Positions 1-37,312 of a stretch of DNA of 64,000 bases are shown one piece after another (the first letter of the stretch is position 1; each line of letters begins with the position of its first letter). This DNA comes from Bryobacterales bacterium. GTDB taxonomy: Bacteria > Acidobacteriota > Terriglobia > Bryobacterales > Bryobacteraceae. A model generated the notes under the pieces. It did not search any database. It was given only the letters and a program-made list of their open reading frames with translations, and was not told where the DNA came from. The stretch covers positions 44,505-108,504 of the forward strand of contig CAVOJX010000015.1 of assembly GCA_963696305.1 (NCBI GenBank). The letters run 5' to 3'. The translations under genes were made by a program, and so were the position numbers.

Positions 1-284
1 TAGGCGAACTCTCCGGTGTCTCGCTCGATGCTTTTCGCTTTAGTTTTCCCATAGCGGCTGAAGGAACTGTGCTGGAAGGCTGCGATCTCAACATCGAAGT
101 CGAACCGGTCACCGTCTACTGCCCTACATGCAATGCCACGGGAAAGCTCGCCTCTCTGACCCGCTTCCGCTGTCCCGTCTGCGATACTCCTACCGCCGAC
201 CTGGTATCTGGCAAGCAATTCAGTATCGTGGCTATAGATGTTGAGATGACCGACGAGCCGCACAATGAATACGCGAATTGTTGA
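1..284 (+). CDS. hypA: Hydrogenase nickel-insertion protein HypA, 5'-truncated by the window edge
   Basis: Frame 3 is open from nt 3 (GELSGVSLDAFRFSFPIAAEGTVLEG...). The C-terminal zinc site has two CxxC pairs (CPTC ... CPVC). It overlaps the hypB start by 20 nt. Confidence 0.85.
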   Translation, partial: GELSGVSLDAFRFSFPIAAEGTVLEGCDLNIEVEPVTVYCPTCNATGKLASLTRFRCPVCDTPTADLVSGKQFSIVAIDVEMTDEPHNEYANC

Positions 285-961: not shown

Positions 962-2668
962 GTGCCGCTGCTTGCAGTCGCTGATAGTCACCATCTGGCC
1001 GAAGGAGAACTCCAGGCCATTCGCACAACGGCCGCGCTCACTCTGAATGAGTTGGACACGCGCATCCTGGCCGGAGCTTTAGCTAAGCAAGCCACGAGTC
1101 TGTTCCATTGCGAGCGGGCGATGATTGCCGTCCTCGAAGGCGCGGAGCCCATCTATCGCGTTGCGTTTCAAGACGGCGGTCTGACGCAAGATTTCCAACT
1201 CGAGCTTGGCCGCGACAAAAGCGCCGGCAATACCGCCATGCGCCATCAGCAAAGCTATTTTTCGAATGCTCCCGTCATTGGAACCTCTTCCGGTCCAACA
1301 TTTGCTCTATCGCGATCTTGTCGTAATCTCCTAACCGTTCCCATCCTGAATCATCAACGCACCTTAATCGGCATCATTGAAGCGCACAACCGTCAAGACC
1401 GTGCGCTGATCAATCCAAACGATGTCCGGCTGGCCGAAGTGTTTTCCTGGCAAGCTGCAGTCGGTCTCGAACGTGCCCGGCTTTACGACCGTTTGAACGA
1501 TTGGTCGCAATCGTTGGAAATGCTGCTCGGTTTCAACGCCGCGGTAAACCAGCACCTTACTCCTCAAGCCCTCATCAGGCGCTTGGTGGAAAATGCTATT
1601 CGCTTCCTAAAAGCCGATGGCGGCCAAGCGGGTCTCGCAGTTCCAACCGACCAACATGACGGTCTCTGCATGGAAAGCGAGGGCTACCTTCACAAAAGCA
1701 CTTGGCATGAGCGATTGCAGCGCTGGCCACGTATGAGCGGCCTGCCTGGTGTAGTGCTGGAGAGCGAATTTCCCTATTTGATGAACGACTATCGCGACGA
1801 CCGCAACGCCGATCCTCAGCTCATGCAAGAGTTCGGCATCAGCCGCGCGCTCTGCGTACCCATCAAAAATGCCAAGGACGAAGTTCTAGGCTTCTTTGAA
1901 CTGCACAAATCCTCCGAGGGCCTTCCGTTTACATGGCAAGACGCCGCATTCTTGGAAAGCCTTGGCAGCACCACCGCTGTTGCTATTGAGAACGCTCAGC
2001 TTCTAAAAGCTCTCGAGCGAAAGAACCTGCAAATTCGAGCCTTAAGCGCGCACAACGTGCAACGCTTGGAAGAAGAGCGGCAGCATGTCGCCAGGGAACT
2101 GCACGACGAGGCTGGCCAAGCCTTGATCGGCATCAAACTTTCGCTGCAAGTTGTCGCCAAACAGATTCCGCCGGAAATGTCATCCTTGCGCGACGAATTA
2201 GACCGACTGCGCGAGCAGGTTAACCAGGCTACCGGACGTTTGAAAGACTTAGCTCGCGGCTTGCGGCCGGCAACGCTCGATCAACTCGGTATCGAAATCG
2301 CCCTTGGCCAGTTAGGCAGCGAATTTGAACGGCTTTCCAGCGTCAAGGTCGAACTGGATATTGATCGCTTGGATCCGCCTCCCTCGCAGGATTGTGCAAC
2401 TGCGATCTATCGTATTGCCCAGGAAGCGATAACGAATACTGGGCGTTACGCCGAAGCCAAGTTAGTTCGGCTCGCTCTTTGGCGCGATGCCGGTTTGCTG
2501 TTATTTGAATTCGAGGACGACGGCAAGGGCTTTGAGATGAAACAATCAACCCAGGGCCTCGGACTGTTGGGCATGCGCGAACGGGCGCGCATACTGGGGG
2601 CGAAAATCGATATCAGTTCACGCCTCGGAAGTGGCACCAGAATTACTTTGGAAGTGACGGAAAGCTAA
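962..2668 (+). CDS. Cytosolic sensor histidine kinase, GAF-GAF-HisKA_3-HATPase_c
   Basis: The ORF is 788..2668, but residues encoded before 942 are an out-of-frame shadow of hypB. GTG at 962 is the first plausible start, with no obvious SD, so the start is uncertain. H-box ARELHDEAGQALIGIKL (HisKA_3 type). C-terminal N/G boxes (AQEAITNTGRYA, DDGKGF, GLGLLGMRERA). No TM segments. Confidence 0.85.
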   Translation: MPLLAVADSHHLAEGELQAIRTTAALTLNELDTRILAGALAKQATSLFHCERAMIAVLEGAEPIYRVAFQDGGLTQDFQLELGRDKSAGNTAMRHQQSYFSNAPVIGTSSGPTFALSRSCRNLLTVPILNHQRTLIGIIEAHNRQDRALINPNDVRLAEVFSWQAAVGLERARLYDRLNDWSQSLEMLLGFNAAVNQHLTPQALIRRLVENAIRFLKADGGQAGLAVPTDQHDGLCMESEGYLHKSTWHERLQRWPRMSGLPGVVLESEFPYLMNDYRDDRNADPQLMQEFGISRALCVPIKNAKDEVLGFFELHKSSEGLPFTWQDAAFLESLGSTTAVAIENAQLLKALERKNLQIRALSAHNVQRLEEERQHVARELHDEAGQALIGIKLSLQVVAKQIPPEMSSLRDELDRLREQVNQATGRLKDLARGLRPATLDQLGIEIALGQLGSEFERLSSVKVELDIDRLDPPPSQDCATAIYRIAQEAITNTGRYAEAKLVRLALWRDAGLLLFEFEDDGKGFEMKQSTQGLGLLGMRERARILGAKIDISSRLGSGTRITLEVTES

Positions 2669-2675
2669 GTAAACG

Positions 2676-3332
2676 ATGAGTGTGAAGTGGAATGACCAGT
2701 ACCGAGTTTTTCTCGCCGACGATCACAACGTCGTGCGCAAAGGGCTTGCCAGTCTGCTTGAATCCGATCCCAGGTTGAAAGTAGTGGGCGAAGCCAGCAC
2801 GGGGGAAGAAGTTTTGGACGCAGTCGAAAAGCTGGATTTCGACTTGCTGCTCATCGACCTTCAGATGCCGCGCCTCAACGGTCTGGAAACCATTCGCCGT
2901 ATCGGCAAACGTTCCAAACCGAAGATATTGGTGCTTTCCATGTACGATGATGCCCAGTTTGTTTCGCAAGCTTTAGAGTACGGTGCCCGCGGATACTTGC
3001 TCAAACATGCCTTCGACGATCTGCTATTTGCCGCCATCGAAGCCATCATGCGCGGCGAAACGTATATCTGTCCCAGTATTGACATGAGCCGCGTACGCGC
3101 CTTGGAAAAAGATCATTTGGATTTAACCTCGCGCGAAAGGGAAGTGCTGCAACTCATCGCGGAAGGCTGTACAACGCAAGCGTTGGCCGAGACTCTAGGC
3201 ATAAGTCCACACACAGCAACCCGCCATCGCGCCAACTTGATGCAAAAATTAGACGCCCACAACCAGGTCGAACTGCTTCGCAACGCTAGCCGCAAAGGCC
3301 TGATTCTCATGCCACAGCGGCTTCAAGAATAA
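2676..3332 (+). CDS. NarL/FixJ-family response regulator (REC + LuxR-type HTH)
   Basis: Receiver motifs (LADDH, LLLIDLQMP, VLSMY). C-terminal LTSREREVLQLIAEGCTTQALAETLGISPHTATRHRANLMQKL. Starts 8 nt after the kinase stop. Confidence 0.9.
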   Translation: MSVKWNDQYRVFLADDHNVVRKGLASLLESDPRLKVVGEASTGEEVLDAVEKLDFDLLLIDLQMPRLNGLETIRRIGKRSKPKILVLSMYDDAQFVSQALEYGARGYLLKHAFDDLLFAAIEAIMRGETYICPSIDMSRVRALEKDHLDLTSREREVLQLIAEGCTTQALAETLGISPHTATRHRANLMQKLDAHNQVELLRNASRKGLILMPQRLQE

Positions 3333-3420
3333 CTTTTCTTGCAAATTACACACTTCTTGCTATTCCGTAAGACCACTTGTCGAGATAGAACTTAATACGG
3401 ACATTAAGGAGAACACCGGA

Positions 3421-4392
3421 ATGGCTTCTTTACTTTGGCTGCAGGGTGGCGCTTGCAGCGGCAATACCATGTCGTTCTTAAATGCGGAGGAACCAAGCGC
3501 TTGTGATTTGGTTACCGACTTCGGCATTGACGTTGCATGGCACCCCTCGCTGGGCATGGAACTCGGCGATAACGCCAAAAAGATTTTCAATGACATGGCG
3601 TCCGGCAAGCGGCCGTTAGACATCTTCGTTTTCGAAGGCACGGTCATCCAAGGTCCAAACGGTTCTGGCCGCTTCAACATGTTCGCTGACAGGCCAATGA
3701 AGGATTGGGTAAAGGAACTTTGTGCCGTCGCTGGAGCCGTGGTCGCGCTTGGCGATTGTGCCTGTTGGGGCGGCATTCCCGCAACCGAGCCTAACCCTGT
3801 GGACAATGTCGGTTTGCAATTTTTGAAGCGCAAACACGGTGGTTTTCTCGGTTCCGACTTCAAATCAAAATGGGGATTGCCGGTAATCAATATTCCGGGT
3901 TGCCCAACCCACCCGGATTGGGTAACACAGATTTTAGTTGCTGTCGCCTCCGGACGCGCCAAAGATCTGGCTTTGGACGATTTGCAGCGCCCCGCGACAT
4001 TCTTCAAAAGCTTCACGCAGACCGGCTGTACGCGCGTTCAGTTTTTCGAATACAAACAATCTCCACCTGAGTTCGGGCAGGGAACTCGCACCGGTTGCTT
4101 GTTCTATGAATTCGGTTGCCGTGGCCCCATGACGCATTCGCCTTGCAATCGGATTTTGTGGAACCGTCAAAGTTCCAAAACGCGCGCGGGCATGCCATGC
4201 ACTGGCTGCACAGAGCCCGAGTTTCCGTTCCACGACCTAAAGCCCGGCACTGTGTTCAAGACTCAGAAGATCAGCGGAACCATTCCGAAAGAAGTTCCAA
4301 CTGGCACCGACCACGTGACATACATGGCTCACGCCGCCGCCGCGCGCATTGCCGCGCCGCAATGGGCCAAAGAGGATATGTTCGTCGTCTAG
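3421..4392 (+). CDS. hupS: [NiFe]-hydrogenase small subunit, no Tat signal peptide (cyanobacterial HupS / Huc-like, group 2a-like)
   Basis: Begins directly at the conserved LWLQGGACSGNTMSFLNAEEP block. Also GDCACWGG, IPGCPTHP and C-terminal Fe-S Cys clusters (GCLFYEFGCRGP, MPCTGCTEPEF). SD aaggag lies upstream. Confidence 0.95.
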   Translation: MASLLWLQGGACSGNTMSFLNAEEPSACDLVTDFGIDVAWHPSLGMELGDNAKKIFNDMASGKRPLDIFVFEGTVIQGPNGSGRFNMFADRPMKDWVKELCAVAGAVVALGDCACWGGIPATEPNPVDNVGLQFLKRKHGGFLGSDFKSKWGLPVINIPGCPTHPDWVTQILVAVASGRAKDLALDDLQRPATFFKSFTQTGCTRVQFFEYKQSPPEFGQGTRTGCLFYEFGCRGPMTHSPCNRILWNRQSSKTRAGMPCTGCTEPEFPFHDLKPGTVFKTQKISGTIPKEVPTGTDHVTYMAHAAAARIAAPQWAKEDMFVV

Positions 4393-4430
4393 TTGCACCC
4401 GAAGAAAGGTTAAACAGGAGAAAACAGTAA

Positions 4431-6056
4431 ATGGCTACCACCACGCTCGTGCCACCGCAGGAAATGCGCATTAGTCCGCTAGGTCGCGTTGAAGGCGATC
4501 TCGATTTGAAAGTCGCCATTCGGGACGGCGTTGTCACCGACGCTTGGACTGAAGCCAGCATGTTCCGCGGTTTTGAAATCATCTTGAAGGGCAAAGATCC
4601 GCAAGCCGGTTTAATCGTCACTCCCAGAATTTGTGGAATCTGCGGCGGCAGCCATCTTTACAAAGCCTGCTACGCGCTCGACACTGCATGGAAGACGCAC
4701 GTTCCGAAGAACGCAACGTTGATTCGCAATATTGCCCAGGGCTGCGAGACACTGCAATCTATCCCTCGTTGGTACTACGCGCTGTTCGCCATCGACCTGA
4801 CAAATAAAAACTACTCGAAGCACCCCATGTATGACGAGGCCGTGCGTCGCTACGCTCCCTTTGTCGGAACCGCATACGAGAAAGGCGTCACCTTGTCGGG
4901 AAAGCCCGTCGAAGTCTATGCTATTTTCGGTGGTCAATGGCCGCATTCCAGTTTCATGATTCCAGGCGGCGTAATGTGCGCTCCCACTCTCTCCGACGTA
5001 ACACGTTCCATCGCCATCCTTGAGTATTGGAAGAACGAGTGGTTAGAGAAGGAATGGCTGGGATGTTCGCTTGATCGCTGGTTGGCGATCAAAAGCTGGA
5101 AGGACATGTTGGCTTGGGCCGACGAAAACGATTCCCAACGCAACAGCGACTGTGGCTTCCTCATCCGTTACGGCCATGAGATTGGATTAGACAAATTCGG
5201 AAAGGGCTGTGGCGCATTTCTTTCCACTGGCACATTCTTCCAACCAGAGCTTTATGAGAATCCCACCATCGACGGCCGCAACGCTGCTTTGATTGCCCGC
5301 TCCGGGGTCTACGATGGCAAAGATTTTCACGATTTTGACCAAGCCGCCGTTCGCGAAGACACTACCCACAGTCACTATCGCGGCAACACCTATTTGCACC
5401 CCTTCGACGGCGTCACAGAGCCGATTGATCCAGCCGATGGACACAAGCAAGGCAAATATTCATGGGCCAAGAGCCCGCGCTACGAAGTTCCTGGCATTGG
5501 CAGCTTACCGCTCGAAGCCGGACCGCTCTCCAGGCAGGTGATCGCCGGACGCCCGGCTACTGCTGCACATCAGGATTACGATCCGGTATTCCTAGATGCC
5601 ATTAGAACCGTTGGTCCCAGTGTCTTAGTTCGCGTCCTTGCGCGTACGCATGAGCTGGCGAAATACTACAAGAACGTTCGCAAATGGATTGATCAACTCG
5701 ACCTGCACGATAAGTTCTACTCCAAGCCAACCGAGTATGCCGAAGGACGCGGATTCGGTTCTACCGAAGCTGCTCGCGGCGCGCTGTCCGATTGGATCAC
5801 CATCAAGAACGGCCAAATCGAAAACTATCAAGTGGTCACGCCAACTGCTTGGAACATCGGCCCCATGGACGGCAAAAATGTTCACGGGCCAATGGAACAG
5901 GCCTTTATCGGCACTCCGATCGCGGATGTCAATGACCCGGTAGAACTCGGGCACGTGGCTCGCAGCTTTGACTCGTGTCTGGTGTGTACGGTCCACGCTT
6001 ACGACGAGAAAACCGGTCAGGAACTGTCTAGTTTCCGAATCGGCGATTCCTGCTAA
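4431..6056 (+). CDS. hupL: [NiFe]-hydrogenase large subunit
   Basis: N-terminal RVEGDL and Ni-Fe ligand motif RICGICGGSH. C-terminal ligand motif DSCLVCTVH followed by a 19-aa extension, the substrate for the downstream protease. Confidence 0.95.
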   Translation: MATTTLVPPQEMRISPLGRVEGDLDLKVAIRDGVVTDAWTEASMFRGFEIILKGKDPQAGLIVTPRICGICGGSHLYKACYALDTAWKTHVPKNATLIRNIAQGCETLQSIPRWYYALFAIDLTNKNYSKHPMYDEAVRRYAPFVGTAYEKGVTLSGKPVEVYAIFGGQWPHSSFMIPGGVMCAPTLSDVTRSIAILEYWKNEWLEKEWLGCSLDRWLAIKSWKDMLAWADENDSQRNSDCGFLIRYGHEIGLDKFGKGCGAFLSTGTFFQPELYENPTIDGRNAALIARSGVYDGKDFHDFDQAAVREDTTHSHYRGNTYLHPFDGVTEPIDPADGHKQGKYSWAKSPRYEVPGIGSLPLEAGPLSRQVIAGRPATAAHQDYDPVFLDAIRTVGPSVLVRVLARTHELAKYYKNVRKWIDQLDLHDKFYSKPTEYAEGRGFGSTEAARGALSDWITIKNGQIENYQVVTPTAWNIGPMDGKNVHGPMEQAFIGTPIADVNDPVELGHVARSFDSCLVCTVHAYDEKTGQELSSFRIGDSC

Positions 6057-6068
6057 AGTAGTCGCATC

Positions 6069-6581
6069 ATGCCTTCGCTCGACGCGCCTGCGCGTTTGTT
6101 GATTATCGGGTGCGGCAATCTATTGCGCGGAGACGACGCCTTCGGTCCCGTCGTTGTGCGAAAGCTTTGGGAGATCGGTCTACCGGATGGCGTTCGTTGT
6201 GCTGACGGCGGCACCGGCGGTATGGACGTTGCCTTTCAAATGCGCGGCGCAAAACGAGTCATCCTTATCGACGCTTGCCGCAGCGGTTCGGAGCCCGGAA
6301 CGCTATTTAAAGTTCCTGGTGAACAACTCGCCACCACTCCGCCGCTGACCGGCATTCATACTCACGCGTTTCGATGGGACCACGCACTGGCGTTTGGAAA
6401 GTGGCTGCTGAAAGCCGACTATCCTAGCGACATTGCTGTCTATCTCGCCGAAGCTACTTGCCTTGAATTAGGCGCTCCCTTGTCTGCGCCAATGGAAAGT
6501 GCAGCGGACAAGCTAATTGAAATTTTAAAGGCCGAAATGCGCGTTCCGGAGACCAGCACAGATGCGGTCGTGTCTGCTTGA
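6069..6581 (+). CDS. hupD: Hydrogenase maturation endopeptidase (HupD/HyaD/HupW family)
   Basis: LLIIGCGNLLRGDDAFGPVVV and GGTGGMDVAF motifs, about 170 aa, immediately downstream of the large subunit. Confidence 0.9.
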   Translation: MPSLDAPARLLIIGCGNLLRGDDAFGPVVVRKLWEIGLPDGVRCADGGTGGMDVAFQMRGAKRVILIDACRSGSEPGTLFKVPGEQLATTPPLTGIHTHAFRWDHALAFGKWLLKADYPSDIAVYLAEATCLELGAPLSAPMESAADKLIEILKAEMRVPETSTDAVVSA

Positions 6582-6867
6582 TTACGACGAGCGCGGCTAC
6601 CTGCTTGTCCCAAGTCAGGTTGCACAAGCCTGTTTTCCCAACGATGTACTTGTCGCCTTACCAAAACAAGGCGAAATCTGGCTTGTGCCTCTGCGCGGCG
6701 CAGCCGCTGGAGGGTTGCTGCTTAAACAGCGCAATGCCGCTGGAGACCGTAGCGTCCTCTTGTGGGAACAACTTCCGCCTGGCACAAAAGCCGGTAAGTG
6801 GCCCGCATTTTGGGATGAGGCAAACGGCGCCTTACGCGTGGCGTTTGGAGCTGGCGAACATGCCTGA
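6562..6867 (+). CDS. Hydrogenase-cluster hypothetical protein (101 aa)
   Basis: ORF overlaps the protease stop by 20 nt, and its own stop overlaps the next ATG. No motif recognised. Confidence 0.55.
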   Translation: MRSCLLDYDERGYLLVPSQVAQACFPNDVLVALPKQGEIWLVPLRGAAAGGLLLKQRNAAGDRSVLLWEQLPPGTKAGKWPAFWDEANGALRVAFGAGEHA

Positions 6868-7066
6868 GCCCAGTTTAGGCCTACGCGCTGAAGTGCGACA
6901 AGAAAACGGCCGCTGGGTCGTGTATCTTTGCTCTGTGTTCTGGGCCGCCGATTTGGACACTCCATTGCAAACGGTTGTGCGTCGAATTAAAGACTATTCA
7001 ACCAAACGAGAAGCCGAAGTGGCTGCACGCTGGATGGAAAGGTGTGCTGATAGAAATTCCGCATGA
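6860..7066 (+). CDS. Hydrogenase-cluster hypothetical small protein (68 aa)
   Basis: The internal ATG at 6860 of ORF 6578..7066 overlaps the upstream stop (ATGCCTGA). Its own stop overlaps the next start (ATGA at 7063). The part of the ORF upstream of 6860 is a shadow of the previous gene. Confidence 0.5.
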   Translation: MPEPSLGLRAEVRQENGRWVVYLCSVFWAADLDTPLQTVVRRIKDYSTKREAEVAARWMERCADRNSA

Positions 7067-8337
7067 CGATCCAAGTTAGACCGCAACCTATTGGTTATTT
7101 TCCGTTTCCGGCTGGTCTTCTCCTGCTGTCAAATACAAGCAGCGATCATGCCGGCGCGCTTAAGAACCTATTATTGGGAGAAATTCCTGAAGTTTTTCCA
7201 GACGAATGGCGATACTTTTTCCTGGCGTTGCGCGGCGAACGCGCTGCTGCTTTCGAACTTTTAGAGGCCGACGAAAGCCCACTCGGTAGTTACAATCGCT
7301 TTGTCCTCAGTGGCGATCCCGAGCTACTAGAGCAGTTGGAAGCACAAGGCGATGCGTTAATCCTTGCACTCGCCAGGGCTGTCGCCTACACCTTAGGATT
7401 GTCAGATTTTTCACCGGATCCCGGCTCAGCCGATGGCGAATTACGCGCCATGCTGGCCATGGTTGGCGCGGCGCACGCGATTGAGAAAAAACAAACTAAT
7501 CAGGCTGTAGAATTGCTTACTACCGGTATCGATGCCAGCGCCCAAAGTCCCTTGCTGGCCGCCCATCTTCTCGATCAACGCGCGCAACTACGGCGCGAGC
7601 AGCAAAGCGGAGGTCTCGCCATGCAAGACTGGCACCAGGCGCTTTGTTTGGCCGCAAATACGCACCTGCCTGAGCTTTTGGCGCATCTGCATCTCTCATT
7701 GGGGTCGGCCTTTCACGAAAGCGCAAATGGCCAGCGTGGCCCACTAGAACAGGCAGCCAAGCATTACCAGCAAGCCTTGTCGAATGGCTACTCGCTGGAA
7801 CAAAATCCCGAAATGTTCGCCTGGACCCAGCAGCAGTTGGCTGTGACGTACCTGGCCATGCCCCTGCAATCTGCGTCTGACCCATTGCGCATGGCCATAG
7901 CGGTGCAAAGTCTGCGTGAGGCTTTGAAGGTCTATACCAAAGAAACTCATTTGCAGCTTTGGACTGTAACCCAGCTCAATTTAGCCAATGCTTTGCAGTA
8001 TTTACCTAGCGCCCATCCGAAAGAAAATCTAGTTCAGGCCGTTGAGATTTATGAGCAATTACTACCGTTCCGCGAGCGCGCGTTCGACCCGGTGGGATAT
8101 GCGCGATTGCTATTCAATCAAGCCAACGCCCTCGCGCACCTCGGCGTTTTTCAACCCGCGCTGGAAAAATTGAATGAGGCCCACAAGTTATTCCATTGGC
8201 ACGATGAGCGGTCGCTCGCGGCTAGCGCTCTAGAACAGGTGGCGCATATCAATGAATTGATTGCCAGCCAAACACCATTGAAATCTGGAGTCGCGGATCG
8301 AATCTCCACGAAAAGCAATATTTTGATTTTCTTTTAA
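7063..8337 (+). CDS. Helical-repeat (TPR-like) protein of unknown function in the hydrogenase cluster
   Basis: 424-aa Leu/Ala/Gln-rich protein with repeated helical-hairpin-like segments (e.g. LNLANALQYLP..AVEIYEQLL, LLFNQANALAHLGVFQPALEKL). ATGA-coupled to the upstream ORF. Confidence 0.6.
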   Translation: MTIQVRPQPIGYFPFPAGLLLLSNTSSDHAGALKNLLLGEIPEVFPDEWRYFFLALRGERAAAFELLEADESPLGSYNRFVLSGDPELLEQLEAQGDALILALARAVAYTLGLSDFSPDPGSADGELRAMLAMVGAAHAIEKKQTNQAVELLTTGIDASAQSPLLAAHLLDQRAQLRREQQSGGLAMQDWHQALCLAANTHLPELLAHLHLSLGSAFHESANGQRGPLEQAAKHYQQALSNGYSLEQNPEMFAWTQQQLAVTYLAMPLQSASDPLRMAIAVQSLREALKVYTKETHLQLWTVTQLNLANALQYLPSAHPKENLVQAVEIYEQLLPFRERAFDPVGYARLLFNQANALAHLGVFQPALEKLNEAHKLFHWHDERSLAASALEQVAHINELIASQTPLKSGVADRISTKSNILIFF

Positions 8338-8366
8338 CCAACGCCGTTGAACGCTTTGTCGAACGG

Positions 8367-8657
8367 TTGGAACAGCGCAACGCTGGAGCCCAGAACGCTC
8401 TTGCGAGATTACGGTCGAATCCCAATGCGGAAGGCGTCTGGCTGGATGATTTTACGCGCGCGCTGTTTCGCGATTTTCTGTTGGATAACGTGGACGGCTA
8501 TTGCTTCATATTAAGCGCGCTCGCGCGTCGGCATGCTCACGCGGTACCTGCTTCAACCATTGAAGACGCTTTAGCATCGTTGGCGCATCATGCGTTTTCC
8601 GAGGTTCTGCGCGCAAAAACGGAAGAGCTCCTGGAGAAGCATTTGGCGGTAGCATGA
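8367..8657 (+). CDS. Hydrogenase-cluster hypothetical protein (96 aa)
   Basis: TTG start. The stop overlaps the start of the NifU-Rieske gene (ATGA at 8654). No motif recognised. Confidence 0.5.
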   Translation: MEQRNAGAQNALARLRSNPNAEGVWLDDFTRALFRDFLLDNVDGYCFILSALARRHAHAVPASTIEDALASLAHHAFSEVLRAKTEELLEKHLAVA

Positions 8658-9508
8658 CAACTAGCGTGAAGGTGGAAGAAACCAACTTGGCGAGGCTTGC
8701 CGCGAAAGTGGACGCGGCTGATGCGGAAGTACGCACCTTAGACGCACCATCGCAAGCTAAAGCATTAGCGCTCAAGACCGCCATCGAAGAGTTCCACAAA
8801 GAAGGATTGATCCGCATCGTTCGCGCCCTCAAAGAAGATCCGCGCGGCAAAGAAATTCTCTTCACGTTGGTGGATGTTCCGGAAGTCTACGCTTTGCTTT
8901 CCATGCATGGCTTAGTCCGTGCGGACTTGCGAACACGAGTGTCGCGCGTCATTGATATGGTTCGCCCGTACATGCAGTCGCATGGCGGTGATGTTGAACT
9001 GGTCGACGTCACTCCAACCACTGTCTTTGTGCGCCTATCGGGAGCTTGCCACGGTTGCTCCATGTCCGCCCAGACCTTGCGTAACAGCGTAGAAGAAGCC
9101 ATTCGTGAGCACATCACGGAGCCCCTGAAGGTGGAACAGCTTACCAACGAGCCTACAACTGCCTTTATACCGCTCGGCATGTTAGCGAACAATGCTGCCG
9201 GTTGGCATCCAGGGCCCATGGCGGCGGATCTGAAGGACGGTAAGCCGGTAAGTATTAACGTTGACAAAATCTCCATTCTGCTCCTCCGAACGGAAGATAA
9301 AATCCAAGCCTTCCGAAACTCCTGCGCGCATATGGGCCTACCCTTGGATGGTGGCATGGTCGATTGCGAAGCGCACGCCATTACTTGTCCCTGGCACGGC
9401 TTTCGCTTTGACACAGTTAGCGGAGAGTGTTTGAACGCACCGGGTGCCCAGCTCGAGCCGTTTCCCGTAAGAATTGAAGAAGGCTGCATCTACGTGCGGC
9501 CCAACTGA
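8654..9508 (+). CDS. NifU-like / Rieske [2Fe-2S] fusion protein (HucE/HhyE-like putative hydrogenase electron-transfer protein)
   Basis: Central NifU C-terminal-type motif GACHGCSMS. C-terminal Rieske ligands CAHMG ... CPWHG. Confidence 0.85.
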   Translation: MTTSVKVEETNLARLAAKVDAADAEVRTLDAPSQAKALALKTAIEEFHKEGLIRIVRALKEDPRGKEILFTLVDVPEVYALLSMHGLVRADLRTRVSRVIDMVRPYMQSHGGDVELVDVTPTTVFVRLSGACHGCSMSAQTLRNSVEEAIREHITEPLKVEQLTNEPTTAFIPLGMLANNAAGWHPGPMAADLKDGKPVSINVDKISILLLRTEDKIQAFRNSCAHMGLPLDGGMVDCEAHAITCPWHGFRFDTVSGECLNAPGAQLEPFPVRIEEGCIYVRPN

Positions 9509-9517
9509 GGCTGATCC

Positions 9518-10666
9518 ATGCCTGTGAACCCTCAAGCACAAGTCTGGGTTGGCGCTCCATCCAAGGGCGGTTTGGCATTGCCGGATGCTCATCCAACTGA
9601 TGCCACCTTATACGGTCCGCGCGGCGTGTATTTGGACGATCAATACCTAATCGTTGCGGATACAGGCAACCACAGGGTGCTGATCTGGCATACCGCACCG
9701 AAATCGGACCATTCCAAAGCGGATATCGTGCTTGGTCAGCGGGATTTCGAAACCGAAGGGCCAAACGCGCGCGGTGCTGGTCCTCAAAACGGCTTGAACA
9801 TGCCCACAGGTGTGTCCGTTGTTGGCGGCAATCTAGTCGTTGCCGATGCCTGGAACCATCGTCTGCTTGTTTGGGAGGGCGTCCCGCAAAGCTCATTCAT
9901 GCCTCCCTCTGCCGTCATTGGTCAAGCTGATTTCGCTAGTGTGAATTGCAACCGTGGCCGTGATCGGGGTGGCACAACTTTCAACTGGCCCTTCGGATTT
10001 CTCATCTCCCGCGACAGGTGGTTAATCATGGATACCGGGAATCGCCGCGTCCTGGGCTGGCATATTTCGCCTCTCGATGGACGCCCAGCCGACTTCGTCT
10101 TCGGCCAGCCAGACCTTGTCAGCGGTGACGAAAATCGAGGTGCGTCGGCTTCTGCCTCCAGTTTTCGTTGGCCCCACGCCGCGGCCGAATTCGACGAAAT
10201 CTTATGGATTGCTGATGCCGGCAACCATCGGCTATTGGGCTGGCCGCTCAATGCCTCTTACGATTCGCCAGCCGCTCGAGTGCTGGGACAGCATGACTTT
10301 GTCTCCAATCAGGAATTCGTCATGGCGCGCCAAAGCGCGGAAACAATGCGCTTTCCCTACGGCATCGCCTCGGCTAATGGTTGGATGGCAGTTGCAGATA
10401 CGGCGAACAACAGAGTGCTCGGCTGGAGCTCGAGCAGTCAAACGCTTGCGGCCGATTGGGTATTGGGTCAACCCGATTTTCACTCCAACGGAGAGAACCA
10501 TTGGAAAGCCGTTACGCACCAAACCTTCTGCTGGCCATACGGCTTGTGCGCCCATCGCAACCTACTGGCCGTTGCGGATTCTGGAAATAACCGCGTCATG
10601 ATATGGAATGTACCCACTTTGGGTGACAAAACGGAAAACGAAAAGGAAACCGCGCTATGTGTTTAG
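9518..10666 (+). CDS. NHL-repeat six-bladed beta-propeller protein
   Basis: Six spaced repeats of the form (A/M)D(T/A/S)GN(H/R/N)R(V/L)(L/M).W: ADTGNHRVLIW, ADAWNHRLLVW, MDTGNRRVLGW, ADAGNHRLLGW, ADTANNRVLGW, ADSGNNRVMIW. Confidence 0.85.
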   Translation: MPVNPQAQVWVGAPSKGGLALPDAHPTDATLYGPRGVYLDDQYLIVADTGNHRVLIWHTAPKSDHSKADIVLGQRDFETEGPNARGAGPQNGLNMPTGVSVVGGNLVVADAWNHRLLVWEGVPQSSFMPPSAVIGQADFASVNCNRGRDRGGTTFNWPFGFLISRDRWLIMDTGNRRVLGWHISPLDGRPADFVFGQPDLVSGDENRGASASASSFRWPHAAAEFDEILWIADAGNHRLLGWPLNASYDSPAARVLGQHDFVSNQEFVMARQSAETMRFPYGIASANGWMAVADTANNRVLGWSSSSQTLAADWVLGQPDFHSNGENHWKAVTHQTFCWPYGLCAHRNLLAVADSGNNRVMIWNVPTLGDKTENEKETALCV

Positions 10667-10938
10667 CAATACCGGGCCGAGTCGAATCTATATTTGAGGC
10701 CAACGGCGCGCGCATGGGGCAAGTCGATTTCGGCGGCGTTCGAAAAGAAGTTTGCCTGGCCTACGTGCCTGAACTCCAAGTGGGTGACTACACCATTGTG
10801 CATGTTGGCTTTGCGTTATCGAAGATCGATGAAGCTGCCGCCCGGCAAACACTAAAAGTATTTGCCGAAATGGGTTTACTGGACGACGAATTGGCCCAAA
10901 TGAAAGAAACGGAAACAACCAATGCGGTACTTGAATGA
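10657..10938 (+). CDS. hypC: Hydrogenase assembly chaperone HypC/HupF
   Basis: Diagnostic N-terminus MCLAIPGRV, about 90 aa, overlaps its neighbours on both sides. Confidence 0.9.
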
Positions 10939-12034
10939 GTTTCGTGACGGTCCGACTGCGCAGCGCATTGCCGCTGAGATCCACTCCATAACTCACGGCC
11001 AATGGGCGCTGATGGAGGTTTGCGGAGGCCAGACGCACTCCATTATTCGCAATGGCATTGACCAAATGCTGCCGCCTAACATCGAATTAATTCATGGCCC
11101 TGGCTGTCCGGTCTGTGTCACTCCGCTGGAAGTCATTGACCGCGCGCTAGCCATCGCAGCCCAACCCGGAGTCATCTTCTGCTCATTCGGAGATATGCTG
11201 CGCGTTCCTGGCTCGCACGAAGATCTGTTTCAAGTAAAGAGCCGTGGCGGAGATGTTCGCGTGGTTTACTCTCCACTTGACGCCGTAAGATTAGCCGCCA
11301 AGCATCCTGAGAAGCAGGTCGTCTTCTTCGCCATCGGCTTTGAAACTACTGCGCCCGCCAACGCCATGGCCGTCCTCCAAGCCCGCCAAATCGGCCTTGA
11401 GAATTTCTCCGTTCTGGTTTCTCATGTATTGGTTCCGCCCGCCATCGAAGCCATCATGCAAAGCCCGAATTGTCGCGTCCAAGCGTTCCTCGCCGCTGGG
11501 CATGTTTGTAGCGTCATGGGTTACAACCAATACTTCCCATTAGCCGCCCAATACAAGGTGCCCATCGTCGTCACAGGCTTCGAACCGCTCGACATCTTAG
11601 AAGGCATCCGCCGCGCTGTACTGCAATTGGAAAAGCGCGAAGCGAAAGTGGACAATGCCTATGAGCGCATTGTCTCCGAAGCTGGCAATACTGTCGCTCG
11701 AGGTATCTTGAACCAGGTGTTCGTTGTTTGCGATCGTGCTTGGCGTGGCATTGGCGAAATTCCAAAGTCCGGCTGGAAACTAGCTCCCGAATTTGAATCC
11801 TTCGATGCGGAAAAGCGCTTCGATGTTTCCGGCATAACCGCCCAGGAATCGCCACTGTGCAAGAGCGGCTTAGTTTTGCAAGGCAAACTCAAACCGAATC
11901 AATGTCCGGCCTTCGGCAAAGAATGCACGCCGCGCAAACCTCTCGGAGCAACCATGGTTTCCTCAGAAGGTGCCTGCGCCGCCTACTATAACAACGGTCG
12001 CTTCCTGCCCGTTGAAGACTTGATCAATGCCTGA
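10922..12034 (+). CDS. hypD: Hydrogenase maturation protein HypD
   Basis: [10 protein letters not shown]-terminus, [18 protein letters not shown] and FxTT motifs. Confidence 0.95.
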
Positions 12035-13085
12035 CGCTCCCGATTTTTCCAACTGGACTTGCCCGCTGCCCTTGCGCGACTATCCCAACATCGTTATGGC
12101 GCACGGTGGTGGTGGCAAGCTCACCCAGGAACTCATCGAAAACCTGTTCCTTCCTGCATTTTCCTCGCCGGAATTATCGCCCATGTCAGATGCGGCTGTG
12201 TTGACCGTCGCGCCAGGTAGGCTTGCATTTTCCACCGACACTTACGTAGTGCGGCCGCTATTTTTTCCGGGCTCATCCATCGGCGACTTAGCCATTAATG
12301 GCACCGTTAACGATCTCGCTATGCAGGGCGCAAAACCGCTTTATCTCAGCGCCGGCTTCATCCTGGAAGAAGGTCTGGCAATAAATGTGCTAGCCCAAAT
12401 TGTGCAGCGTATGGGGGAAGCCGCCCGCGCCGCCGGAGTGCGCATTGTTACCGGCGATACGAAAGTCGTCGAGCGCGGCTCGGCCGACCAGATTTTTATC
12501 AATACCGCCGGTGTCGGCCTCATTCCTGATGCGGTCGATCTAGGCCCGCACAGAATCCGACCGGGTGACAAGGTTCTGCTGTCCGGCACCATCGGCGACC
12601 ACGGCTTGGCTATCATGAGTGTCCGCGAAGGCTTGGAATTCGAATCCCCAATTTGCAGCGATTGCGCTCCGCTCCACAATCTAGCAGCTGCATTGCTGGA
12701 ACATCCGCCCGACATTCGGATGCTGCGAGACGCCACCAGAGGCGGGATTGCGGCCGTCCTAAATGAAATGGCTCAGACCAGCAAACTCGGCATCGCATTG
12801 AACGAATCTGCCATCCCGATAAAGCACGAAGTACAGTCCGCCTGTGACTTGCTTGGTCTTGATCCGTTTTACGTTGCCAACGAAGGAAAATTCATCGCGA
12901 TCGTTGCCGCCGATCAAGCCGAAACTTTGACCGCCAAACTCCGAAGCTTACTCTTCGGCTCCAATGCCTGCATCATCGGCGAAGTTCAAACGTCGCAGCC
13001 TGGCATGGTCAGTCTGCGCACTCGTATGGGAACCCGCCGCATTGTGCCAATGCCATTAGGCGAACAATTGCCGCGTATCTGCTGA
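12027..13085 (+). CDS. hypE: Hydrogenase maturation carbamoyl dehydratase HypE
   Basis: AIR-synthase-like fold motifs ([16 protein letters not shown]) and the diagnostic C-terminal PRIC. Confidence 0.95.
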
Positions 13086-17172: not shown

Positions 17173-18113
17173 TACGCCTCAAATGCGGTTTCTACTGGAT
17201 AATCGATATAGGCTTCATGCACTGCCTCGTGCAATGTCTCACATTGCTGCACAATGTCCGCCAGAGTTTTTGCGAAATCGCGGTTCATCAAATCCTCAAT
17301 CTGCGCATACGCCAGCGACGAGCACAGTTTTCCCACTATCCGCTCCACACGCTGAAACTTCGCATCGCTAGCTGGCCGCGAAATGGCCCGCAGAGCATTT
17401 TGCATCTGTTCTGCCGAATAACGAACTGTATGCGGAAATACCGAATTCAACAAAAGAAATTCCGCCACATGGTCCGGCCGCATGTCCGCCGTATAAACTT
17501 TGCAATAAGCCTCGAACGCGGAGCAACTGGATAGCACGCCCACCCAATCTAAATCGTCCATCGTGTCGGCGCTCGAAAATACCGCATCCAGAAAAGAGGG
17601 CAGGGCACACGCACGCTCAATATACTTGCCCAATTGAATGAAGTGCCACGCCTCCCCATGGCTGATCGTTGCCGCAGTCACTCCGTGGAATCGATAAGCG
17701 CCCTCGCGCATCGTTGTGAAAATAGGTTGCACGCCGAATTCAGACGAATGCCGAAATTGCCCCGCCATCTGCGTAATCTCGTGGTAAAGCTGGTTCAATC
17801 GTTCCCACATTTCCGAACTGATTTGTTCGCGTACCTGGCTCGCGTTCTCTCGTGCGCCCGTAATGCAAGACACAATCGAAGATTGGTTTCCCAGGTCCGT
17901 CAGCAATTCCAACATCGCAGCCTGTGGCTCCAACGCGTTTGAATCCGGACCCAATCCCAGGTTTTCCGTAATGCGATGCCACCGCTCTTCCATCGCCGTT
18001 TTGGAAGGGTTCAACATCAGATTGTGATTCGCTTCCAGCACACGCGCGCTGTGGTCCGCGCGCTCGAAATAGCGGCTCATCCAATACAGGCTGTCGGCAA
18101 CTCGAGACAACAT
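17172..18113 (-). CDS. Alpha-E domain protein (DUF403)
   Basis: N-terminus MLSRVADSLYWMSRYFERADHSARVL is typical of the alpha-E family. 1-nt overlap with the transglutaminase gene. Confidence 0.85.
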   Translation of the reverse strand: MLSRVADSLYWMSRYFERADHSARVLEANHNLMLNPSKTAMEERWHRITENLGLGPDSNALEPQAAMLELLTDLGNQSSIVSCITGARENASQVREQISSEMWERLNQLYHEITQMAGQFRHSSEFGVQPIFTTMREGAYRFHGVTAATISHGEAWHFIQLGKYIERACALPSFLDAVFSSADTMDDLDWVGVLSSCSAFEAYCKVYTADMRPDHVAEFLLLNSVFPHTVRYSAEQMQNALRAISRPASDAKFQRVERIVGKLCSSLAYAQIEDLMNRDFAKTLADIVQQCETLHEAVHEAYIDYPVETAFEA

Positions 18114-18120
18114 AACTCTC

Positions 18121-19596
18121 CTAACTCTCCAACACCCAGGTATCTTTTGATCCGCCGCCCTGCGAAGAATTCACCACTAACGAACCCTTTCGCAACGCCA
18201 CACGCGTCAAACCGCCCGGCACAACGGTCACCTTGTCCCCAAACAGCACGTATGGACGCAAGTCAACGTGTCGCGGCTCAATCTTGCCGTCCTCCACAAA
18301 ACAAGGCGCCGTCGAAAGCGATATCGTCGGCTGCGCAATATAGTTGCGCGGGTCCTGCATGATGCGGTCGCGAAACTCCCTGCGCTGCGCCTCGCTGCTG
18401 TGCGGACCAATCAGCATTCCATATCCGCCTGATTCGCCAACCGCCTTCACCACATATTTATCCAGATTGCCGCAAACATGCTGTCGCGACTTTTCATCCG
18501 TCATCAGGAACGTCTCAACGTTGTTGATAATCGGATCTTCACCCAGATAGTATTTAATGATCTTCGGCACATAGGCATAGATCGCCTTATCGTCCGCAAC
18601 TCCGGTTCCCAATGCGTTTGCCAGCACCACATTCCCAGCGCGATAAGCGTTGAAAATTCCTGCCGCGCCCAGCGATGAATCAGGCCGAAATGTCAGCGCG
18701 TCCAAAAAGTCATCATCCACGCGCCGGTAAATCACGTCCACTCGCTTCAAGCCGCTGGTGGTTCGCATGTACACAAAGTTGTCATGCACAACCAGGTCGC
18801 GCCCCTCTACAAGCTCAATTCCCATTTGCCGCGCCAGGTACGAGTGCTCGAAATACGCGGAGTTGTACACGCCCGGGGTCAGCAAAACAATCGTCGCTTG
18901 CGATCGCCCTTCCGGTGCCAGCGAACGCAGCGTCGAAAGCAGCGCCTGGCTGTAGTGCTCAATCGGCTTTACGCCATATTTACGGAACAGCACCGGGAAC
19001 GTTTGCTTCATCACCCGGCGGCTGGTCAACATGTAGGAAACCCCGCTAGGAACGCGCAGGTTGTCCTCCAAAACCACGAAATTGCCGTCCGGCAATCGAA
19101 TCAGGTCCGTGCCGCAAACCGTTACGTACACATCGCGCGCCACTTTAACGCCGCGCATCTGCCGCCGAAAGTGCTTACAGGTGTAAATGGTTTCACCTGG
19201 AATCACGCCGTCCTTCAGAATTTTGCCGTCGTTATAAACGTCCTTCAGGAAAAGGTTCAGCGCCGTGATGCGTTGCGTCAGGCCCCGTTCTATTACTTCC
19301 CATTCAGCACATGGAATAATGCGCGGCAAAAGATCGTGAGGAAAAATACGTTCCGTGCCTTCTTCGCGCCCATAGACGGTAAAAGTTATTCCCTGATTAA
19401 AAAAGGAAAGATCCGCTTCCAGTTTGCTGCGCCGGAGTTCGTCGGCCGGGAGGCTTTGCAATTTGGTGAACAGTGACCGGTAGTGGGCTCGAGGCCGGTT
19501 CTGGGACCGGAACATCTCGTCGTAGGCAGTACCTAACTCGTAATCAGCAAAGGGAGCTGGGATATATCGCTCCGAAAGTATAGACGGCGTCGCCAT
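18121..19596 (-). CDS. Circularly permuted type-2 ATP-grasp protein (DUF404/DUF407)
   Basis: About 490 aa. Conserved context with the alpha-E and transglutaminase genes. Family-typical blocks (TFTVYG, RIFPFDLLPRII-like, VLKPV-like [16 protein letters not shown]). Confidence 0.85.
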
Positions 19597-19694
19597 GAGT
19601 CAATTTGAGTTGTCGCCGGAAACTCATCGACATGGAATCGCCCGGTGGAACGATTATTGAGTATATCGCCTGTGCCAGTTCAATGTCATTCATA

Positions 19695-36639: not shown

Positions 36640-36675
36640 AGCGCCGCGTCCAAAAGATGCGGCGCTTTTCTCTTT
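36640..36675 (+). terminator. Intrinsic (possibly bidirectional) terminator between rpmE and the converging regulator gene
   Basis: AGCGCCGCGTC-CAAAA-GATGCGGCGCT (11-bp stem including one G-U) followed by TTTCTCTTT. Confidence 0.7.
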
Positions 36676-37303
36676 ACTGTGGTGCCACCAACCCCTTGCG
36701 GATCGCAAACAGCACCAGTTCGGCAGTCCGGTGAATATTCATCTTCTCCATCAAATTCGCCCGATGTACCGAAACCGTGTTCACTGAAAGGTCCAGCAGC
36801 GTAGCAATCTCTTTATTTGATTTCCCTTGCGCAATCAACTGCAAAACCTGCTTTTCGCGCGAAGTCAGCTTGCGTAGTTCGTCATCCAGCTCACCCACCA
36901 CGTACTTCACGCCTGAACTCATAAATCTGCGTCCTTGCGAAACCGTACGAATAGCGCCCACCAAATCCACGTCAATCGCGCTCTTTAGCAAATACCCCTT
37001 CGCGCCCGCATCCAATGCATTGCGCACATAATTATCGTCGGCATGCATGCTCAGCACCAGAATCTCCGTGCCTGGAATATCTTTTAAGATCTCCTTCGTC
37101 GCCTGAATGCCATCCAGTTCCGGCATCGACAGATCCATCACCACCACACGCGGCCTTAATTCGCGGGTAAGCTTAATGGCGTCCACACCGTTGCTCGCTT
37201 CACCCACAACTTTAATTCCCTCCTCGTCCTCCAACAGCCGTCTGAAACCGCTTCGCACCAGTGCGTGATCATCAGCCAATAATACGGTTATTTCTTCGCT
37301 CAT
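36674..37303 (-). CDS. NarL/FixJ-family response regulator
   Basis: REC (LLADDH, VVVMDLSMP) plus LuxR HTH (LTSREKQVLQLIAQGKSNKEIATLLDLSVNTVSVHRANLMEKM). Confidence 0.9.
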   Translation of the reverse strand: MSEEITVLLADDHALVRSGFRRLLEDEEGIKVVGEASNGVDAIKLTRELRPRVVVMDLSMPELDGIQATKEILKDIPGTEILVLSMHADDNYVRNALDAGAKGYLLKSAIDVDLVGAIRTVSQGRRFMSSGVKYVVGELDDELRKLTSREKQVLQLIAQGKSNKEIATLLDLSVNTVSVHRANLMEKMNIHRTAELVLFAIRKGLVAPQ

Positions 37304-37312
37304 AAAAAATCT

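Follow-up and report, generated by a model that had tools for sequence, protein, structure and literature searches.

A GAF-domain kinase and a NarL-type regulator as candidate regulatory pair of Huc (group 2a) hydrogenase clusters, with a predicted operator

Introduction

Hydrogenases of the Huc type support bacterial life on H2 from air and help to determine the global H2 sink. In the mycobacterium M. smegmatis, where DosST/DosR controls the hydrogenases Hhy and Hyh, no regulator is yet known to act directly on huc (Kropp et al. 2026, PMC13098282). Here we analyze a two-component system, a soluble histidine kinase with two GAF domains and a NarL/LuxR-type response regulator, that is encoded within a Huc-type (group 2a) hydrogenase cluster of a Bryobacterales bacterium (Acidobacteriota). 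The DNA under study, called the window below, is a stretch of 64,000 nucleotides (contig CAVOJX010000015.1, positions 44,505 to 108,504). A preliminary description of the window had stated that the regulators of aerobic hydrogenases are largely undefined, which is fair for Huc (PMC13098282). It also suggested a new regulatory logic for the pair, but overlooked the precedent of DosST-DosR acting on Hhy and Hyh (PMC13098282), so that this logic does have a parallel.

DosS/DosT-DosR is the closest analogue: its kinase is likewise soluble and built as GAF-GAF-HisKA_3-HATPase_c, and its regulator belongs to the NarL family and binds a palindrome. However, the two systems are not orthologous. Domains of DevS/DosT in the PDB match the kinase only at E 1e-4 to 7e-3, and DosS-like loci fall in the paralogue group of our genome scan (E >= 1e-41, compared to <= 1e-108 for orthologues). 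Furthermore, the haem histidine and the distal tyrosine of the DosS/DosT GAF-A domain are not found in this kinase. While DosR has a reported set of more than 50 genes and targets Hhy and Hyh, the pair described here lies inside one hydrogenase cluster. Two promoters make up its predicted regulon, its predicted target is Huc (group 2a), and its operator sequence is a different one.

Two-component control of uptake-hydrogenase genes is also a feature of HoxBC-HoxJ-HoxA and HupUV-HupT-HupR. These H2-sensing systems combine a group 2b sensory hydrogenase with a PAS kinase and a sigma-54 activator of the NtrC type; we found none of the three here, in a genome that is 83% complete. On the output side, the system resembles LuxR/TraR with the lux box and NarL with its 7-2-7 site, where a GerE/LuxR helix-turn-helix (HTH) dimer meets an 18-20-bp inverted repeat overlapping the -35 element. 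The left half of the site upstream of hucS, TACCTAG, resembles TACYYMT, which we take to be the NarL heptamer. In contrast to LuxR/TraR, activation here would be by phosphorylation and not by an acyl-homoserine lactone, and both the site and the recognition residues H179, T182 and R183 are specific to this clade when compared with LuxR/TraR and NarL. Finally, Escherichia coli FhlA is a GAF-domain sensor that turns on the hyc structural and the hyp maturation operons together. FhlA is, however, a one-component sigma-54 activator that senses formate and serves a fermentative group 4 enzyme, whereas the present pair would relay phosphate to a LuxR-type output and belongs to an aerobic uptake enzyme.

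At the molecular level the pair is a two-component system of the ordinary kind. What is new is the group of orthologues, the strictness with which it is tied to Huc clusters in different phyla, and the operator predicted here. We found no paper describing this pair in group 2a/Huc clusters. Neither a kinase nor a regulator appears in the operon legend of Fig. S4 in Islam 2020, and this architecture is not singled out in a 2025 survey of [NiFe]-hydrogenase neighbourhoods. The comparisons presented below indicate that the pair is probably a dedicated regulator of the Huc cluster, which would act on structural and maturation genes through a palindromic site.

Results

The pair encodes a predicted cytoplasmic phosphorelay

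The genes and domains of the pair are as follows (Pfam assignments).

962..2668, forward strand: cytoplasmic sensor histidine kinase, GAF-A / GAF-B / HisKA_3 / HATPase_c, 568 aa, GTG start
1073..1474, forward strand: GAF-A, residues about 38-171, Pfam GAF_3, weakly conserved
1556..1990, forward strand: GAF-B, residues about 199-343, Pfam GAF/GAF_2, strongly conserved sensor domain
2075..2656, forward strand: HisKA_3 dimerisation/phospho-histidine and HATPase_c catalytic domains, with PDB sequence matches to DesK and VraS
2676..3332, forward strand: NarL/LuxR-type response regulator, 218 aa, Response_reg in residues 11-121 and GerE HTH in 150-202

The GTG start of the kinase is backed by close homologues, in which M-P-L begins at the same place. 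Pfam matches to GAF, GAF_2 and GAF_3 fall in residues 38-171 and 199-343, followed by HisKA_3 in 372-439 (E 7.7e-14) and HATPase_c in 480-565 (E 7e-10). A Kyte-Doolittle analysis revealed no transmembrane segment in the kinase (best 19-residue mean 0.99). Across 42 homologues the H-box histidine H381, N492 of the N box, D519/G521/G523 of the G1 box and G532/G534 of the G2 box are invariant. The regulator gene starts seven bases past the kinase gene, and its product is matched by Response_reg at E 3e-26 and by GerE at E 5e-17. Its receiver domain holds the acidic pocket (D15/D16), the phospho-accepting aspartate D61, S88 and K110. Domain assignment and hydropathy thus agree with the preliminary description, which had placed a kinase of GAF-GAF-HisKA_3 type lacking transmembrane segments and a LuxR-HTH regulator between hypAB and the hydrogenase genes.

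Neither the kinase nor the regulator has an NCBIfam equivalog above cut-off. The whole kinase architecture is found in more than 100 protein clusters with 43-79% identity. The genome of the Bryobacterales bacterium encodes a single full-length copy, and the remaining matches span the catalytic core only. The window itself contains, at 36674-38671 on the reverse strand, another HisKA_3 kinase (452 aa) with an adjoining 209-aa open reading frame (ORF). This kinase is a paralogue with 31% identity over the catalytic core and has no match to the GAF-GAF part of the kinase at 962-2668.

The pair is linked to Huc genes in at least four phyla

We scanned genomes, one per species, for the kinase and counted full-length matches with E <= 1e-108 as orthologues and partial matches with E >= 1e-51 as paralogues. 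All 12 loci with a full-length orthologue adjoin hydrogenase genes. On the contrary, none of the 68 paralogue loci carries hydrogenase genes, and a single one of them shows only a weak small-subunit-like match. The orthologue loci stem from Acidobacteriaceae, Holophagales, Pirellulales, Gemmatimonadaceae, Anaerolineales, another Chloroflexota genome and an alphaproteobacterial metagenome-assembled genome (MAG). Eleven of them are Huc-type, with HucS 84-92% and HucL 74-80% identical, and the twelfth encodes a group 1h enzyme with HofG as best PDB match (5AA5, E 5e-150).

The group 1h locus (L021) belongs to the alphaproteobacterial MAG, which is titled Roseobacter sp. Here the orthologous pair lies beside a HofG-like hydrogenase and not beside Huc (4776-9568 and 9845-12381), and the divergent region holds a weaker palindrome, ATAGCAAT-GT-TGGGCTAT. 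The kinase-regulator clade may serve both kinds of high-affinity hydrogenase, Huc and group 1h.

We also inspected six metagenome contexts of homologues that share the kinase architecture, down to 44% identity, and these agree with the linkage. Four of the six have the in-line order DUF1641-hypA-hypB-kinase-regulator-hucS-hucL. The fifth, from Pirellulales, has the DUF1641-hypAB-kinase-regulator block divergent from hucSL, and in the sixth this block is accompanied by hypF and hucSL is not adjacent.

The linkage was also seen when loci were approached from the hydrogenase side. HucL of at least 78% identity occurs in three of 401 sampled genomes of Acidobacteriota, including the Bryobacterales genome itself, and in all three the kinase is encoded 2-3 kb upstream. 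Three more distant acidobacterial Huc-like loci (HucL 40-56% identity) are without the kinase. Among 201 genomes of Gemmatimonadota, five have Huc, each with the kinase. Hence, the kinase lies 2-3.5 kb from hucL in every sampled genome of Acidobacteriota (3/3) and Gemmatimonadota (5/5) with HucL of at least 74% identity. Loci picked by HucL similarity alone contain the pair in five of six cases, the exception being Oscillochloris sp. ZM17-4. The order of the genes varies (in-line, as divergent block, or with kinase and regulator first in Chloroflexota) and the linkage persists. The pair is thus conserved beside Huc genes in Acidobacteriota, Gemmatimonadota, Planctomycetota and Chloroflexota, which answers the question of neighbourhood conservation raised in the preliminary description.

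The Huc cluster of Oscillochloris (L104) is preceded by a Crp-like cyclic nucleotide (cNMP)-binding gene and a PadR gene (2825-5275), and a PAS/GAF histidine kinase of more than 1100 aa is encoded downstream of it (17217-19626). These three may be alternative regulators of the Oscillochloris Huc enzyme.

An inverted repeat lies in the putative promoter regions of the structural and maturation genes

The pair ends 88 nt before the small subunit gene hucS (hupS), as had been noted before and is confirmed from the sequence. This gap contains the following elements.

3333..3420, forward strand: regulator-hucS intergenic region, 88 nt, internal promoter region
3336..3342, forward strand: TTCTTGC copy 1, present, not conserved in orthologous loci
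3346..3363, no strand assigned: predicted operator, TTACACAC-TT-CTTGCTAT, the window copy of the 8-2-8 inverted repeat ATRGCAWG-NN-CWTGCYAT
3354..3360, forward strand: TTCTTGC copy 2, inside the right half-site of the predicted operator
3363..3391, forward strand: putative promoter, -35-like TTCCGT (3363-3368), 17-nt spacer, weak -10-like TAGAAC (3386-3391)

Aligning the DNA 5' of hucS from 13 loci revealed a conserved block, TAC[AC][TA]AGTTCTTGCTATTG, located 59-143 nt before the ATG. TTCTTGC copy 2 forms the core of this block. The preliminary description had proposed that the two TTCTTGC copies, as a direct repeat with an 18-nt period, could be the site of the regulator. Both copies are present and the predicted site does lie in the gap, but it is not this direct repeat: when the gap is shuffled with its composition kept, 13% of the shuffles contain an exact, non-overlapping direct repeat of a 7-mer, and copy 1 is not conserved. 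We therefore replaced the direct repeat by the inverted repeat. In 22 loci carrying the pair it was found at two independent places, 5' of hucS and 5' of the DUF1641-hypAB-kinase-regulator operon.

A position weight matrix (PWM) of 21 nt was built solely from the 13 hucS-upstream sites and run over the whole 5.9-Mb genome. The top hit was the hucS site of the window, itself a training site; hits 2 and 3 lie inside ORFs. Hit 4 (C15:43495) lies about 1 kb before the window, in the 64 nt that separate hypF from the divergent DUF1641 gene, the first gene of the hypAB-kinase-regulator operon. The best intergenic hits of this genome are therefore the hucS site and the hypF/DUF1641 site. Such a second site upstream of DUF1641-hypAB, on which the matrix had not been trained, is present in nearly every locus that carries the pair. 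When 17 loci (about 330 kb) were scanned at a threshold of at least 13 bits, no further hits were found beyond these two sites; later loci were scanned at 9-11 bits. Where the block is divergent from hucSL, we observed either one shared site (two loci) or two sites. The two Chloroflexota loci have one site each; there the operon with hucSL starts with the DUF1641/hypA genes, and the site lies between these and the regulator gene.

Gemmatimonas aurantiaca T-27 (or a near-identical strain) has hypF divergent from DUF1641-hypA-hypB-kinase-regulator, followed by a 32-bit site and hucS and hucL, and a second site lies in the hypF/DUF1641 intergenic region. The two sites read:

G. aurantiaca, upstream of hucS: CTACCTAGTTCTTGCTAT
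G. aurantiaca, between hypF and DUF1641: ATGGCAAGATCATGCTAT

The hypF/DUF1641 site is the sole zero-mismatch match to the inverted repeat in the G. aurantiaca genome. Likewise, the equivalent hypF/DUF1641 site is the sole one-mismatch match in another acidobacterium.

Huc loci without the pair gave no motif hit at 9-11 bits or above in Oscillochloris (78% HucL) and in two distant loci. An exception among the pair-less loci is L097 (5307-10732; G266:C108), a second Huc-like locus (HucL 54%) of an acidobacterium that also has a Huc cluster with the pair. It shows one 15-bit hit just inside the start of a 320-aa ORF, and cross-regulation of this locus by the pair is possible. A wider regulon in the Bryobacterales genome was considered and rejected, since the other top PWM and pattern hits lie in ORFs, namely at C25:379911 (an unannotated 305-aa ORF), at C7:315949 and, in two identical copies, on C21. 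The latter are held by two tandem paralogous ORFs of 719 aa (C21:87906-92221), each with the near-palindrome TTGGCATGATCTTGCCAT in its coding sequence; this one-mismatch match to the operator is probably a coincidence.

The position of the palindrome relative to the putative promoter is conserved as well. In 17 hucS promoters it ends on the first T of a -35-like hexamer, which starts with TTG in 14 cases and with TTC in the window, and a weak -10-like hexamer follows 17+/-1 nt past the -35-like hexamer. A simple sigma-70 scan of the gap found no promoter. With this spacing the dyad of the palindrome would be centred near -43, a lux-box-like position. A riboswitch or attenuator in the 88-nt gap was rejected (no Rfam match at E <= 1; fold z-score -0.05 compared to shuffles), and no terminator-like site was found there.

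The recognition helix of the regulator is specific to the clade

We compared the regulator sequences of 19 orthologues and 68 paralogues. The recognition helix of the orthologues reads S-P-H-T-A-T-R-H-R-A-N. Four of its positions separate the two groups: P178 is present in 89% of the orthologues and 13% of the paralogues, H179 in 95% and 0%, T182 in 84% and 0%, and R183 in 100% and 3%. Q197 in the HTH is also clade-specific. Because this helix is kept across phyla and the palindrome is present only where the pair is present, we predict that the regulator binds the palindrome.

We also considered that the 18-bp element could itself form part of a promoter, for instance one of the sigma-54-like -24/-12 kind, or be bound by another factor, and that the pair regulates something else. 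The right half indeed holds TTGCT, which resembles a sigma-54 -12 box, and some sites on the DUF1641 side read ATGGCA. However, the hucS sites have no GG at the -24 position, and the GG-to-GC spacing of the ATGGCA variants is one base short of what we take to be the canonical sigma-54 spacing. Moreover, the regulator is without an AAA+ domain, and the element, being a palindrome, gives hits on both strands in several loci. We therefore rejected a sigma-54 promoter. As the motif is found in all loci with the pair and not in Huc loci without it, and the recognition helix is clade-specific, this explanation in its general form is also improbable, and binding of the palindrome by the regulator is the reading that we retain.

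The conserved GAF-B domain and the possible signal

Within GAF-A there are few invariant columns among the 42 homologues, P127 being one, and H131/Q132 are retained in at least 90%. GAF-B, on the other hand, is strongly conserved, with W248, G260, G263, F270, Y277, G310, F323, W325 and Q326 invariant. As had been suggested in the preliminary description, AlphaFold was applied to the sensor part. The GAF-B model (AF2, pLDDT 87) has its nearest folds in the cNMP-binding GAF domains of PDE5A, CyaB2, PDE2A, PDE6 and Lcd1 (TM 0.63-0.83), and GAF-A of DosS ranks about 38th among the fold neighbours. We regard the likeness to cNMP-binding GAF folds as a lead and not as a ligand assignment.

Published expression data from G. 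aurantiaca T-27 bear on the signal. Both published HucL quantitative PCR primers match exactly inside hucL (GAU_0412) of the G. aurantiaca genome examined here, which carries the pair and both predicted sites. The hucL transcript was reported to be unchanged between ambient and 10% H2 and to be 51-fold lower in stationary phase (Islam et al. 2020, PMC7784904). If the pair controls hucL, the signal would therefore be the growth or energy state and not H2. Taken together, the signal is probably a cue of growth, energy or carbon state.

Such a cue could be a cyclic nucleotide or a similar small metabolite that binds GAF-B and reports the carbon or energy status. In line with this idea, Huc expression follows carbon and growth state (PMC13098282, PMC7784904). 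The fold neighbours of the GAF-B model are cNMP-binding domains, and the best PDB sequence match to GAF-B is a PDE5 GAF domain. However, fold likeness does not fix the ligand of GAF-B. Furthermore, only K, F and D (H315-K316...F323...D327-A328) are retained of NKFDE, which we take to be the motif of cNMP-binding GAF domains. We therefore put forward cyclic nucleotide binding only tentatively.

Less likely still is a haem-based sensor of O2, NO or CO, or a redox sensor, which would couple hydrogenase expression to hypoxia in the manner of DosS/DosT-DosR. The domain architecture of kinase and regulator is the same, GAF-B weakly matches GAF-A of DevS/DosT (E about 1e-4) and has the DosS domain among its fold neighbours, and in M. 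smegmatis the regulation of Hhy and Hyh is ascribed to DosST/DosR (PMC13098282). Actinobacterial DosS-like paralogues carry GFPxxHPPM...YGNLYLTEK, and seven of them, with HPPM...NLYLTEK, were aligned with the kinase clade using MAFFT. In the columns of the haem histidine (DosS H149) and the distal tyrosine (Y171) the window kinase has S117 and E140, and the residues of the clade are variable and neither His nor Tyr. When GAF-B is placed by the offset from a conserved VP, E290 and F312/E313 occupy the positions of the haem ligands. No invariant Cys or His is found in either GAF domain among the 42 homologues. Similarity to DosS-like kinases is about 30% and confined to residues >= 120. We therefore rejected a DosS-type haem site in this kinase. 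The predicted operator also differs from what we take to be the DosR box.

The position of the pair inside a hydrogenase cluster could suggest that it responds to H2, with a function analogous to that of HoxBC-HoxJ-HoxA or HupUV-HupT-HupR. This is very improbable, as the cluster contains no sensory hydrogenase (besides hucL, the [NiFe] large-subunit genes found in this genome, which is 83% complete, belong to a Hox-type group 3d and a group 1h-like enzyme), the kinase lacks a PAS domain, the regulator lacks a sigma-54 AAA+ module, and G. aurantiaca, whose hucL level is reported to be unchanged by H2 (PMC7784904), carries the same system.

The surrounding hydrogenase cluster

The genes that flank the pair are listed below.

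3..284, forward strand: hypA, 3' part in the window (Pfam HypA E 1.8e-17, TIGR00100); whole gene at contig C15:44372-44788
265..942, forward strand: hypB, Ni-insertion GTPase (TIGR00073, 241 bits, cut-off 121 bits)
3421..4392, forward strand: hucS/hupS, Tat-less small subunit (Pfam Oxidored_q6 and NiFe_hyd_SSU_C)
4431..6056, forward strand: hucL/hupL, group 2a large subunit, 541 aa (PDB match to M. smegmatis HucL)

The large subunit matches the M. smegmatis Huc structures 7UTD and 7UUS at E 3.6e-270 and 2.9e-270, respectively. Because of this match, at E about 3e-270, we assign the enzyme to group 2a, and the group 2a call of the preliminary description was correct. Downstream of hucL follow a maturation protease, small ORFs, a NifU-Rieske (HucE-like) gene, an NHL gene and hypCDE. 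The same NifU-Rieske and NHL gene set is listed for group 2a (PMC7784904). Orthology of HucL and HucS, the Tat-less small subunit, the HucE-like NifU-Rieske protein and the NHL protein are thus all found at this locus.

In nearly all Huc loci of this clade that were examined, the first gene of the hypA-hypB(-kinase-regulator) operon encodes a protein of 260-290 aa with a C-terminal DUF1641 (PF07849). Its gene lies at C15:43572-44408, about 100-930 nt before the start of the window, and at 6106-6948 and 6055-6888 in the loci L009 and L012. It is present in Oscillochloris, which is without the pair, and not in the group 1h locus. NicO-type nickel/cobalt transporter genes were found beside hypF or between divergent operons (L102 214-882, L109 170-874, L103 6960-7640), which suggests that nickel supply is part of the same hydrogenase island. 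Elsewhere in the Bryobacterales genome there is a group 1h-like hydrogenase (C17:11522-14451) with both its small and its large subunit gene broken into two frames, which points to a frameshift, an assembly error or a pseudogene. A Hox-type group 3d cluster is located at C1:4148-11042.

Discussion

As its linkage to Huc and the predicted site are conserved and its recognition helix is specific to the clade, this pair is at present the strongest candidate for the direct Huc regulator that has been missing so far. In the mechanism that we propose from the sequence comparisons, the tandem GAF module would read a cytoplasmic signal, with GAF-B as the conserved domain. The kinase would autophosphorylate at H381 and pass the phosphate to D61 of the NarL-type regulator, and a regulator dimer would bind the 18-bp inverted repeat. 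The copy at 3346-3363 abuts the -35-like hexamer of hucS and would place the regulator in a position like that of a lux box or a class II activator. A second copy would act in the divergent promoter region between hypF and DUF1641-hypA-hypB-kinase-regulator. With sites at both promoters, the structural genes, the maturation genes and the pair itself would therefore be switched on together. We favour activation over repression, with moderate confidence.

Several points weigh against this proposal. The pair is not universal in the Huc clade, as Oscillochloris is without it despite a HucL of 78%, and no such pair is known among the huc genes of M. smegmatis. Related loci are not independent samples. 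The left half-site of the window matches the palindrome at 3/8 positions, and the inverted-repeat reading rests on the other loci. The -10 element is weak and was picked as the best of three spacings. Finally, another factor could bind the motif.

A more far-reaching proposal can be made, albeit with much less confidence than the dedicated control of the cluster itself. The pair might be the direct switch of the hydrogenases that oxidise atmospheric H2 in Acidobacteriota, Gemmatimonadota, Planctomycetota and Chloroflexota. It might read an intracellular messenger of growth or energy state via the uncharacterised pocket of GAF-B and act at ATRGCAWG-NN-CWTGCYAT; in at least one proteobacterial MAG it would go along with a group 1h enzyme.

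The analysis supplies a candidate sensor-regulator pair, a predicted operator at two promoters and, with G. aurantiaca T-27, a cultured and already studied host that has both. On/off control of atmospheric H2 oxidation thereby becomes directly testable outside mycobacteria, and the promoter-regulator module could serve the controlled expression of Huc. If the more far-reaching proposal is true, the soil H2 sink in these phyla would be governed by organic-carbon or energy status and not by H2.

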